Shown: positions 30,463-35,077 of the stretch, in pieces
Layout of the letters: every line of letters starts with the position of its first letter
How positions within the stretch are numbered: position 1 is the stretch's first letter
IMG/VR virus record: IMGVR_UViG_3300036770_005357
Length of the DNA stretch: 64,000 nucleotides
Strand: one strand, 5' to 3'
Source of the DNA: a virus
Taxonomy: Duplodnaviria > Caudoviricetes
The notes under the pieces: generated by a model
Seen by the model: the letters and a program-made list of their open reading frames with translations, nothing else
The model's database searches: none
What the model was told of the DNA's origin: nothing
Program-made: the position numbers and the translations under genes

Positions 30463-30780
30463 TCAATAGGGAATAACAATGCCCTTTTTTACAAGTTTCT
30501 CATACCACTCCCTACCCTCCCTAGTAAACCGCCCATCCCACAATAATTCATACTTGCTCTGTAACTCCTCTACCATTGCAGTACCATAACCCTTATGCCT
30601 ATAATCATGCTTTATAAAGATAAACTCTATATAAACTTGCATGTCCAAAAAGTACTCCTTATAGTACTTACAATATCCAACAAATTTATCGTCACCCAAT
30701 AGATTGTCGTAAATGTTACAACAATAATCATATTGAATATCACTAGAGCCAATAAACTTATGCTCAAATGTCAACAACAT
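30463..30780 (-). CDS. Small GNAT-family acetyltransferase
   Basis: Acetyl-CoA-binding motif IFIKHDYRHKGYGT. Confidence 0.7.
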   Translation of the reverse strand: MLLTFEHKFIGSSDIQYDYCCNIYDNLLGDDKFVGYCKYYKEYFLDMQVYIEFIFIKHDYRHKGYGTAMVEELQSKYELLWDGRFTREGREWYEKLVKKGIVIPY

Positions 30781-31051: not shown

Positions 31052-31130
31052 TGGAGCGGTGTCTCGGACTTATTTATTCACCGGCCTTCTCACAGGAATG
31101 TAAGCGTGCTCCTCATGACACTAACACCGC
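31052..31130 (-). tRNA. Degenerate tRNA-Gly(TCC)-like gene
   Basis: Acceptor GCGGTGT/ACACCGC + TCCA; D-arm identical to its neighbour; anticodon loop 6 nt (ATTCCT); T-loop expanded to 13 nt. Confidence 0.55.
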
Positions 31131-31139
31131 ATCAAAATC

Positions 31140-31213
31140 TGGAGCGGAATCTCGGACTTGCACCGGCCTTGTGAACTGGTAGTCCACCGTGCTCCTCATG
31201 ACACTAATTCCGC
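31140..31213 (-). tRNA. tRNA-Gly(ACC)
   Basis: Acceptor GCGGAAT/ATTCCGC, U73, CCA; anticodon stem GTGGA/TTCAC with loop CT-ACC-AG; T-loop TGCAAGT with a weak T-stem. Confidence 0.75.
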
Positions 31214-31224
31214 ATTAAATCTAA

Positions 31225-31525
31225 TAAAATAGGGAGGATTAATGATTACCTCCAAGTTTCTTAACTACGATATGTTATTCGTCCACAATCCATAAAGTTA
31301 ATTACTCTCTATGTTCACGATCGATGGGACTCTTTTACCCACAACAAGCCACGATTTATCATACGATTTTAGCTACGATCTCGTTACGCTCAAACTTAAA
31401 GTTGTACGACTTCAAATTCTCCATAGACTTACATACCATAATTATTACTTCAACCAATATGCCATGTTTTTCAACACAACACACTGTGCGTTATACCCTA
31501 AACGAAGGTATTGTTCCGCCACTAT
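31225..31525 (-). ncRNA. Candidate structured ncRNA within the tRNA operon
   Basis: ~300 nt with no credible ORF and several hairpins (atacc/ggtat, ttgaagt/actttaa, gtggg/cccat); starts just downstream of a boxA-like element. Confidence 0.35.
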
Positions 31526-31532
31526 CTTAAAT

Positions 31533-31545
31533 TGTTAAAGAACTA
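31533..31545 (-). promoter_or_regulatory. boxA-like antitermination element
   Basis: TAGTTCTTTAACA versus rrn boxA TGCTCTTTAACA. Confidence 0.6.
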
Positions 31546-31553
31546 TCAAAAAA

Positions 31554-31641
31554 TGGTGGGCAAGGTGGGATTTGAACCCACAGCGTTTCTAATGTAAGGG
31601 ATTTTAAGTCCCTCGTGTTTCTCCAGTTTCACCACTTGCCC
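31554..31641 (-). tRNA. tRNA-Leu(TAA)
   Basis: Full cloverleaf; AGGGA-CT TAA AA-TCCCT; long variable arm; CCA encoded. Confidence 0.93.
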
Positions 31642-31668: not shown

Positions 31669-32331
31669 CTACTTTCTTATCTTACCACAGGTTTTCTTTT
31701 CGTCAAGCGCTTTAATAAATATCAATTTCTTATTTTCGCCTGTAGGTTTGACAAACTTTTCTTTTAGTTGTTCACCTTTATCCCACTTCATACTCACACT
31801 TTTATGTGAAGGTAATCCAGCGGTTTCACCAATACATTTCCAATTATCAGCTCGATATACAGCGCCATTGTTACCACCAGCAACAAAGGTTATTATATAT
31901 TTCAAATCATCACCATATTTCTTCTTCCATTCAATTGGAGCTAATTTTCTCAACTGTTTAAGAATCATAGTTCCAGCATTTGGAATCTTTCGTTTCAAAC
32001 AAAATCTCCAATTATTTGCAAAACTATTGAATACATCTTTATACTGATTCTTAGATAAATTAACTTCAGTAAGAATATCTTTGGGTGGTGGATATACACT
32101 ACTACCAATACCAATCATACCCAATAATTCTTTATCAGGTGGTGGAAATAAATCTTCGGAACCGTCTTCAACTAAATAAACCAACCAATCAATTCTTCTA
32201 CCAACACTAGAATTGGATGGTACATAACTATGATGATTTTCAATAACCTTTTTAACTAGTTTCTTTTGATCTTCTGTAACTACTAGTTCAAGTTTAATTA
32301 TTGATTTGTTTTTTGATAAATCCACGCTCAT
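31669..32331 (-). CDS. DUF4338/DruA-like (Mom-related GNAT-fold) putative DNA-modification protein
   Basis: HHSY, ANNWRF, EWKKKYG, TFV and GAVYRADNWKCIGETAG motifs; likely start MSVDL (32331). Confidence 0.75.
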   Translation of the reverse strand: MSVDLSKNKSIIKLELVVTEDQKKLVKKVIENHHSYVPSNSSVGRRIDWLVYLVEDGSEDLFPPPDKELLGMIGIGSSVYPPPKDILTEVNLSKNQYKDVFNSFANNWRFCLKRKIPNAGTMILKQLRKLAPIEWKKKYGDDLKYIITFVAGGNNGAVYRADNWKCIGETAGLPSHKSVSMKWDKGEQLKEKFVKPTGENKKLIFIKALDEKKTCGKIRK

Positions 32332-32899
32332 CAAATATGAATCGGTTTTGATATACACTGTTACAATGATAACATTGAGGAATAGTATTGTCAATAGTAA
32401 GTGGTTTATTAGGATCCATATGTCCTTTTTCTAAACGAGTAATATCCGATGGAAATTTAAAATGTGGTTCACCTTCTTTACTACCACAACAAATACATCT
32501 GTAATTATAAGTTTTCTTCAAACCATCCCAATCAATATTACAGTCTCTACGACCTAACGACCAATTTAAATGTGGTACCGTAAAATCACTTGCTTGATAA
32601 TTACAATTCTTTTTATTACCAGACTTACTTATATTCCATCCTTTTTGTGTACTTAAATGTCTAGCTTGTTGTACATCATTAACTTCAGGATAAAAATTAC
32701 GAATAAAAATAGTCAACTCACGCTTACTAACAAGTCGATCACGATGTCTATACAAATAAACAAGTGTAAGAGCATCAATAACAAACTTATTATTCTTCTT
32801 AGAAATAAGTTTAGGCATAACAATACCCAACTTCTCAAGATGTTCCTTGTGAAGATTTACGAGTTCTTGATATACACTATTAATTTCTTCGATAGTCAT
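32294..32899 (-). CDS. HNH (betabetaalpha-Me) endonuclease with N-terminal helical/winged-helix-like domain, restriction-enzyme-like
   Basis: CICC...GHMDP...DNTIPQCYHCN zinc/HNH motifs. Confidence 0.8.
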   Translation of the reverse strand: MTIEEINSVYQELVNLHKEHLEKLGIVMPKLISKKNNKFVIDALTLVYLYRHRDRLVSKRELTIFIRNFYPEVNDVQQARHLSTQKGWNISKSGNKKNCNYQASDFTVPHLNWSLGRRDCNIDWDGLKKTYNYRCICCGSKEGEPHFKFPSDITRLEKGHMDPNKPLTIDNTIPQCYHCNSVYQNRFIFDERGFIKKQINN

Positions 32900-33045: not shown

Positions 33046-33138
33046 TGGTGGTCCTGTCAGGTAACGCTCCTGATTCTTACGCTAGTCCGGCGATTAACTG
33101 TGTTATAAGCACAGCGGCTTTCTTTAAGCTACAGGACC
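33046..33138 (-). tRNA. tRNA-Ile(TAT), atypical
   Basis: GGTCCTG/CAGGACC acceptor; CTGTG-CT TAT AA-CACAG; 24-nt variable region; T-loop AGCGTTA; CCA. Confidence 0.8.
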
Positions 33139-34282: not shown

Positions 34283-34357
34283 TGGCAGTCCTGCGGAGAT
34301 TCGCACTCCGGTCTCTTGGATGAAAGCCAAGAATCCTAACTACTAGACGACAGGACC
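34283..34357 (-). tRNA. tRNA-Glu(TTC)
   Basis: CTTGG-CT TTC AT-CCAAG; T-loop TGCGAAT; G73; CCA. Confidence 0.92.
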
Positions 34358-34515: not shown

Positions 34516-34590
34516 TGGTAGGGCGCCACGGTAACGATCCGTGTTCTACTGGTTAAAAGCCAGTTGCTTCACCGTTAAAGCTTGCACCCC
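34516..34590 (-). tRNA. tRNA-Lys(TTT)
   Basis: ACTGG-CT TTT AA-CCAGT; T-loop ATCGTTA; CCA. Confidence 0.92.
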
Positions 34591-34995: not shown

Positions 34996-35077
34996 ATGGC
35001 GCTTCGGGAGGGATTTGAACCCACATTTACATCCAATTATGCACTTAGAGCTTAGAAGACTCCGCCATTACCGAAGC
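34996..35077 (-). tRNA. tRNA-Arg(TCT)-like gene lacking the D-arm
   Basis: GCTTCGG/CCGAAGC acceptor, G73, CCA; only 7 nt between acceptor and anticodon stems; loop CT TCT AA; 22-nt variable region. Confidence 0.65.

Follow-up and report, generated by a model that had tools for sequence, protein, structure and literature searches.

A tRNA-Gly-like RNA of a phage tRNA cluster as a possible glycyl carrier for Mom-type DNA hypermodification

The 64,000-nt stretch of DNA analyzed here (the window) comes from a 173-kb virus record in IMG/VR, of the Caudoviricetes (IMGVR_UViG_3300036770_005357, hereafter G000), which is estimated to be 73% complete and has a G+C content of 32%. The virion proteins of this phage bear only a distant likeness to those of isolated phages, and the window gave no nucleotide match among 50,697 phage records in near and distant search modes. 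The minus strand of the window carries a cluster of tRNA genes, and in it lie two unusual tRNA-Gly-like RNAs: RNA A (31140..31213) and, 9 nt downstream, its tandem paralogue RNA B (31052..31130), both on the minus strand. A co-oriented open reading frame (ORF) for a 220-aa Mom-like GNAT of the DUF4338/DruA type (31669..32331, minus strand) ends 456 nt upstream of RNA A, and a canonical tRNA-Leu(UAA) (31554..31641, minus strand; called by ARAGORN, 60.5 bits with the Rfam tRNA model) stands between this gene and the Gly-like RNAs. Here we describe RNA A, the RNA family to which it belongs, and the genetic link of that family to Mom.

RNA A is 74 nt long, with a 71-nt body and an encoded CCA end, and forms a cloverleaf, which is also its unconstrained minimum free energy fold (single-sequence fold z-score, −1.1). 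Read along the minus strand, G1 lies at 31213, U73 at 31143, and the CCA at 31142-31140. The 7-bp acceptor stem (GCGGAAU/AUUCCGC) opens with G1-C72, C2-G71, and G3-C70; the D arm has a 4-bp stem and an 8-nt loop, the variable region is 4 nt, and the 5-bp anticodon stem includes one G.U pair. The anticodon loop is of the usual 7-nt size (C32-U33-A34-C35-C36-A37-G38), with U33 and a Gly anticodon of the NCC form, namely ACC at 31180-31178, A34 being window base 31180. The T arm is deformed. In place of a canonical 5-bp stem and a U54-U55-C56 loop, RNA A has G55 in the loop U54-G55-C56-A57-A58-G59-U60 (UGCAAGU) and a bulged 4-bp stem, in which three pairs are contiguous, a fourth, recognized by family comparison, is formed across a bulged A on the 3′ strand, and position 49/65 is a G.A mismatch. 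The initial annotation had placed at 31140-31213 an RNA with full Gly identity, an ACC anticodon, the T loop TGCAAGT, and only three T-stem pairs, and all of this is borne out on the minus strand.

Standard tRNA detectors pass over RNA A. ARAGORN at default settings, which calls six ordinary tRNAs on the same strand nearby, does not call it; the Rfam tRNA model RF00005, which finds seven other tRNAs in the region, gives no match to it at E ≤ 10; and no Rfam family fits it. The ARAGORN check proposed earlier returned a tRNA-Gly(acc) at exactly 31140-31213 on the minus strand only once the threshold had been lowered to 85% (-ps85). RNA B, which the initial annotation had overlooked, is not called even at -ps80. 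Its D arm is identical to that of RNA A, its encoded 3′ end is likewise CCA, and the same T-stem flanks surround a 13-nt T loop; its acceptor stem (GCGGUGU/ACACCGC) differs from that of RNA A by compensatory changes, and its 5-bp “anticodon” stem closes a 6-nt loop (AUUCCU). This variant is shared with three other loci (L024, L043, and L050). The bacterial glycyl-tRNA synthetase (GlyRS) identity set (G1-C72, C2-G71, G3-C70, U73, C35, and C36) is complete in both RNAs.

Pattern scans of viral contigs yielded seven loci with a shared D-arm word and 64 loci with a looser pattern (the 3′ strand of the D stem, CCAG, AAGG, and UGCAA) that fixes positions 35-38 and leaves positions 33-34 free. All 64 are recognizably the same RNA, and they fall into two types: an AT-rich type found in the tRNA clusters of large phages, often as tandem pairs, and a mid- to high-GC type. 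A covariance model, R1, was built from 45 distinct sequences, with RNA A and RNA B among them. In a search of 624 kb of loci, R1 scored family members at 41-95 bits and genuine tRNAs at no more than 20 bits. The window contains exactly two R1 matches, RNA A (74.4 bits, E = 6e-16) and RNA B (49.4 bits), scores that are partly circular because both are training sequences; relatives outside the training set score 29-68 bits. Since true tRNAs in the searched loci reach no more than 20 bits, the score of RNA A speaks against a chance match, and RNA A is a genuine, if deformed, tRNA-Gly-like element. It shows the hallmarks of the family: GCG…CGC-U-CCA ends, C35-C36-A37-G38, a UGCRA T loop, and the bulged A in the 3′ strand of the T stem.

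R1-type RNA is conserved over ~90 loci with compensatory changes in all four stems. In the R1-guided alignment, 99.1% of pair cells are standard and double changes occur at 19 of the 21 pairs; when the 3′ partners were slid by one to three columns as a control, pairing fell to 34-46%. Such an alignment is fitted to the model and hence favors structure, but the compensatory changes in the acceptor and anticodon stems are plain in the raw sequences. Of 50 sequences, 48-49 have the same pair at 1-72, at 2-71, and at 3-70, and each of the pairs 4-7 occurs in four or five types. No variation is seen at U73, C35, and C36 (positions 35-38 being set by the search pattern) or at G71. What is kept is the set of glycine identity elements of bacteria (Giege and Eriani 2023, PMC9976931). 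The decoding parts are variable: of the 45 distinct members, 24 have U at position 33, 9 have A, 7 G, and 2 C (non-U in 43%); at position 34, A is found in 20, U in 18, C in 4, and G in none. Several members have 6-nt loops, and some of those linked to mom have no D arm.

The ACC anticodon is no peculiarity of the window. The loop CUACCAG also occurs in ~25 loci of another subtype with covarying stems and in three independently found loci (L152, L161, and L162); the nearest relative of the window, L049, has UCC where RNA A has ACC. Because ACC recurs across loci, a base-calling error at RNA A is not likely. When the family pattern was run against 596 Gb of bacterial and archaeal genomes, it gave 17 matches, about the number expected by a rough estimate, all of them chance matches with no cloverleaf and no Mom. 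In the collections searched, the Gly-like RNA is virus-borne.

In phage Mu, the GNAT Mom moves glycine from Gly-tRNAGly onto N6 of adenine in double-stranded DNA (Silva et al. 2026, Nat Commun, PMC13219725; preprint 2023). An on-base rearrangement after the transfer gives N6-carbamoylmethyl-dA (PMC13219725). Clustering of the ORFs around our RNA family led to this same protein. In 40 of the 64 pattern-found loci (G+C 0.44-0.69), the RNA lies inside the 3′ end of an ORF, and the protein cluster that overlaps it is Mom (Pfam PF25680, E = 1e-43 to 1e-52; phrog_1384). In these small phages, a ParB_N-like gene precedes mom and terminase genes follow it. The embedded RNA lies within the terminal 75-90 nt of the mom ORF, and its frame is the same each time, so that it also encodes a conserved C-terminal tail of Mom (…GSADSGT..Q..RGGA.PT…), which is absent from Mu Mom and from jumbo-phage Moms. 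The fixed-frame embedding is seen in L009, L012, L014, and 34 other Mom ORFs (for example, L014:584-1294, with the RNA at 1203-1278). Were the RNA excised, the mom mRNA would be severed ahead of the stop codon, and the two may therefore be coupled in regulation.

For an independent test, R1 was run on 80 Mom loci picked solely by the likeness of their protein to Mu Mom. In each of the 17 loci with a distant Mom (36-41% identity), the RNA follows directly 3′ of the Mom-homologous part and on its strand. At three loci with a Mu-like Mom (67-69% identity), a canonical tRNA-Gly(UCC) precedes mom by ~120 nt (L217:2806-2879, L218:2798-2872, and L219:2800-2873), and the 60 close Mu relatives have neither an R1 RNA nor a tRNA-Gly near mom. 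R1 finds nothing in the mom locus of Mu itself, whose Mom stops short of the RNA-encoded tail.

In large phages the RNA and mom co-occur but are not adjacent. Both near-complete records with the AT-rich RNA carry canonical Mom, two genes in G003 (100% complete) and one in G002; the records of six further relatives are 4-41% complete fragments and uninformative on canonical Mom. Among 14 records picked via a jumbo-type Mom protein, R1 matched five, including four of the four that are at least 55% complete; two of the five matches are ordinary-looking tRNA-Gly(UCC). Of five records picked via the DruA-like gene, only the two with two to three canonical Mom genes have the RNA. These large-phage counts are small and not phylogenetically controlled; the embedding in small-phage mom genes is the strong evidence for the link to Mom.

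The GNAT gene next to the window RNAs encodes a protein whose sole PHROG match is phrog_1384, “Mom-like DNA modification protein” (E = 1.5e-8). Its Pfam match to DruA/DUF4338 (E = 1.7e-5, 24.6 bits) is just below the cut-off of 27. Aligned with Mom by hhalign (E = 2.9e-4), it matches the HxSY, Arg, Ser/Thr, and G-x-x-Y-x-A-x-N-W motifs; in a weak hhalign match (E = 0.0016), R109 falls on the essential R111 of Mu Mom and T121 (S/T in the family) on the essential S124. Its AlphaFold model (pLDDT 76.7) has Mu Mom, 8BV8, as the best match of 350,542 PDB chains (E = 1.2e-5, TM 0.50/0.54). The protein has more than 1,250 metagenome homologues of ~191 aa. A sigma-70-like promoter-like site (TTGACA-17-TATCAT, 11/12; 32366..32394, minus strand) precedes the ORF, as judged by a consensus scan only, and a scan of the same kind found no minus-strand terminator-like site between it and RNA B.

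Two side observations touch this protein. A custom Mom hidden Markov model found in the 173-kb record only the ORF at 31669-32331 and a C-terminal domain at G000:167429-168937 (L080:2430-3938), outside the window; the latter belongs to a 503-aa protein annotated by PHROGs as a homing/HNH endonuclease (phrog_3339, phrog_559; Pfam DUF7487), whose C-terminal ~150 aa match the Mom-like phrog_1384 (E = 1.3e-11). Several marine phage contigs have a DruA-like gene (L100, L101, L111, L112, L115, L117, and L157), and in such contigs the DruA-like gene is often preceded, at 1-2 kb, by a transfer-messenger RNA gene that ARAGORN mostly classes as permuted.

On balance, we think it probable that RNA A is a phage tRNA-Gly-like RNA with a mainly non-translational role, a private glycyl carrier that GlyRS can charge and that serves Mom-type DNA hypermodification; RNA B probably shares this role. 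RNA A would be made as part of the transcript of the minus-strand tRNA cluster, and trimming would expose its encoded CCA end. Host GlyRS would then charge it, as the retention of all bacterial Gly identity elements suggests. The deformed T arm (G55 for U55, the 49/65 mismatch, and the bulged A), together with unconstrained positions 33 and 34, would keep RNA A off the EF-Tu/ribosome pool. A Mom-family GNAT may move the glycyl group from RNA A to N6 of adenine in the phage double-stranded DNA, where it would rearrange to N6-carbamoylmethyl-dA and block restriction; this enzyme could be the divergent Mom-like product of the gene 456 nt upstream, or else a canonical Mom from another part of the genome. 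The fold, the family, the covariation, and the genetic linkage to mom genes are observed here, and the use of Gly-tRNAGly by Mom is published for phage Mu only; expression, charging, EF-Tu avoidance, and use of the RNA by Mom we infer. Of the three roles that the initial annotation had offered for the RNA (service to GGT codons, escape from an anticodon nuclease, and a role outside translation), the last is the best supported, and genetic linkage now gives it a concrete partner in the Mom-type GNATs.

Several observations weigh against this carrier role, and most of them concern the partner enzyme. The adjacent GNAT misses the Pfam Mom cut-off (12.5 bits versus 27.1, E = 0.11) and is only distantly Mom-like, and generic GNATs score nearly as well as 8BV8 in the fold search. 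Its gene and an overlapping HNH-type nuclease ORF form a lineage-specific cassette that is absent from relatives with the same RNAs, so its adjacency to RNA A may be accidental. Among 80 loci with this DruA-like protein, 79 have no such RNA within 5 kb, and we do not claim the DruA-like gene as the usual partner of the RNA, one locus of the 80 having both. Two complete genomes with the DruA-like protein and no Mom are also without the RNA, and the 173-kb record, at 73% completeness, contains no canonical Mom (PF25680). Phage Mu manages without an RNA of its own for Mom. As to RNA A itself, G55 alone says little, given that the tRNA-Glu of the same phage also has such a T loop (UGCGAAU), and this copy has U33, a normal 7-nt loop, and an anticodon that fits the commonest Gly codon of the phage.

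For the family as a whole, the broader proposal is that many phages, from small siphovirus-like phages to 300-kb jumbo phages, encode translation-insulated, tRNA-Gly-derived glycyl carriers for Mom-type hypermodification; our judgment on it is evenly balanced. Selection in such carriers would keep the GlyRS identity set and the acceptor/T-arm module and would free or spoil the decoding parts, a corollary that we find as easy to doubt as to believe. The proposal would explain the recurrent ACC, the non-U33 residues, and the 6-nt loops, and the tandem pair of the window would then be two carriers.

The last of the objections to RNA A leads to the leading alternative, that it is a working, unorthodox elongator tRNA-Gly(ACC) that boosts GGU decoding and may double as a Mom donor. 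The codon usage that the initial annotation had supposed is there: GGT makes up 60% of the 3,548 Gly codons of the genome and 66-70% of those in three giant ORFs with 13.5-16.6% Gly. RNA A has, besides its regular anticodon loop with U33, A37 and an encoded CCA; the six canonical tRNAs near it all read A/U-rich codons; and irregular T loops recur in accepted tRNAs of this phage, namely tRNA-Glu (UGCGAAU, with G55; 34283-34357), tRNA-Lys (AUCGUUA; 34516-34590), and tRNA-Ile (AGCGUUA; 33046-33138), all on the minus strand. There is also a precedent for a well-formed tRNA-Gly(ACC), which ARAGORN calls and which has a canonical T arm, at L152:2438-2509, 7 nt upstream of a DruA-like/Mom-like gene on a 43-kb viral contig. 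The wider family argues against decoding as the main role. Close members with G33 or A33, 6-nt loops, or no D arm still keep the GlyRS identity set; the mismatch and bulge of the T stem fall at pairs that set EF-Tu affinity; default ARAGORN and the Rfam tRNA model both reject RNA A; its sister RNA B cannot present a normal anticodon; and the genetic link of the family is with mom genes rather than with codon usage. The proposed GGT-codon role is thus favored by the codon counts and disfavored by the family's build, and we regard a mainly decoding RNA A as unlikely. The carrier and decoder roles of RNA A are not mutually exclusive.

Evasion of host defenses, also raised in the initial annotation, fares worse. 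The RNAs could be decoys or replacements against defenses that act on tRNA-Gly or Gly-tRNAGly, such as anticodon nucleases or TacT-type GNAT toxins. U73 and G71, on both of which TacT specificity rests (PMC9976931), are invariant in the family, and the variability at positions 33 and 34 could be taken, by inference only, to mean escape from an anticodon-loop nuclease. We found no known tRNA-Gly-specific anticodon nuclease, no computed result favors the idea, and it leaves the embedding in the mom genes of dozens of unrelated small phages unexplained; we consider it most improbable. That RNA A is a functionless, decaying tRNA-Gly pseudogene or a processing punctuation mark of the tRNA operon, as the silence of the standard detectors and the fold z-score of only −1.1 might suggest, is scarcely credible, because a pseudogene would not covary, and the RNA, conserved at ~90 loci, has fixed identity nucleotides, compensatory changes in each of its four stems, and a tandem duplicate with compensatory acceptor changes. 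Two further ideas were set aside: a cell-wall (Fem) role, rejected on the ground that PF02388 and PF13480 have no match in G000 at E ≤ 1, and a likeness to T4 rnaC/rnaD, dropped once the Gly identity and the mom link had emerged.

The surroundings of RNA A hold several other features. The HNH-type nuclease ORF (32294..32899, minus strand; Pfam HNH, E = 0.009) and the start of the Mom-like gene overlap, and both genes make up one 1.3-kb insertion that separates tRNA-Leu(CAA) from tRNA-Leu(UAA); the gap between these tRNAs is 1313 nt in the window versus 86 nt in L007 and L003, relatives with the same RNAs. They could represent a nuclease-modifier pair, or else a homing cassette. Between tRNA-Leu(UAA) and RNA A, immediately 5′ of the latter, lies a conserved non-coding stretch of ~330 nt (31214..31553, minus strand), which is present at ~80% identity and full length in at least 17 jumbo-phage loci. 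RNAalifold gives it 90 pairs, 19 of them with compensatory double changes, and no Rfam family matches it (best, manA, E = 0.34). We regard the stretch as a candidate for a new structured RNA of phage tRNA clusters, probably on the same transcript as RNA A. Farther along the cluster, at 35000-35077 (minus strand), is a tRNA-like RNA with nearly no D arm and a 19-nt insert, which scores 29.9 bits with the Rfam tRNA model and on which ARAGORN is silent. Downstream of the Gly-like RNAs, a 105-aa GNAT ORF (30463-30780, minus strand; Acetyltransf_1, E = 1e-7) is short and generic; it is syntenic 1-6 kb downstream of such RNAs in at least eight related jumbo-phage loci and is followed there by a conserved ~170-aa ORF.

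If RNA A and its relatives do act as glycyl carriers, this would be the first case of a virus with a dedicated aminoacyl-tRNA-like cofactor for chemical DNA modification. To our knowledge, the cell-wall tRNAGly of staphylococci are the sole dedicated non-ribosomal tRNAs studied in depth to date. The carrier role would also fill a gap in the Mom pathway as described in 2026, which assumed scavenging of host tRNA, account for the recurrence in phages of a Gly anticodon, ACC, that is almost never used, explain the odd “pseudo-tRNA” reported inside mom homologues in 2011, and provide a marker RNA for annotating Mom-type hypermodified genomes. The embedded RNA (2011) and the tRNA dependence of the enzyme (2023, 2026) are already known. 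A full-text literature search found no paper that joins the mom-embedded pseudo-tRNA with the tRNA dependence of Mom; in the literature searched, neither the inference of a dedicated carrier nor the free-standing form in jumbo phages, which has ACC and 6-nt loops, appears to have been published.

Among known systems, Mu Mom (PDB 8BV8, PF25680) belongs to the same enzyme family as the partner at the R1 loci and discriminates the body of tRNAGly: it accepts all three Escherichia coli tRNAGly isoacceptors, and Gly-tRNAAla fails (PMC13219725). Silva et al. read their result as scavenging of host tRNA and mention neither a tRNA-like RNA nor a phage tRNA gene (PMC13219725). The two cases differ in that Mu Mom has no RNA of its own and that the enzyme adjacent to RNA A is only a distant relative of Mom.

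The nearest published RNA is a 76-bp conserved tRNA-Gly-like “pseudo-tRNA” with anticodon DCC, embedded in a mom homologue that ssrA genomic islands of Dehalococcoides carry (McMurdie et al. 2011, PMC3146451). Its describers gave it no function, and the Mom homologue there follows a ParB-domain gene (PMC3146451). This order of ParB_N, Mom, and embedded RNA is the same as in the 40 small-phage loci, a likeness drawn from the description, the sequences not having been aligned to R1. In contrast to the Dehalococcoides form, the window copies are free-standing in a jumbo-phage tRNA cluster, AT-richer, duplicated, and outside a mom ORF. We know of nothing in 2011 that would have tied Mom to tRNA.

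Ordinary phage tRNA-Gly, such as the UCC species of large-phage clusters, shares with RNA A the Gly-type acceptor, the encoded CCA, and the place in a tRNA cluster, and in some Mom-carrying phages (L217-L219, L326, and L327) a canonical tRNA-Gly(UCC) stands in an equivalent role or position. Unlike these, RNA A fails the detectors and has G55, a bulged 4-bp T stem, ACC, and a sister with a 6-nt loop.

A parallel with staphylococcal non-proteogenic tRNAGly had been drawn at the outset, and it holds: in these RNAs the UUC of the T loop is replaced by UGC or UGU, their binding to EF-Tu is weak, and Fem transferases prefer them (PMC7826273). The NP1-NP3 tRNAGly of Staphylococcus aureus and Staphylococcus epidermidis are additional tRNAGly paralogues that remain good GlyRS substrates and feed a GNAT-fold aminoacyl-transferase outside translation, much as the carrier role proposed here would have RNA A do. 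They differ in being cellular and confined to staphylococci, in serving a Fem enzyme whose acceptor is a peptidoglycan precursor and not DNA, and in keeping a UCC anticodon and regular stems. The staphylococcal RNAs are thus the closest functional precedent for RNA A, as an analogy and not as members of one family.

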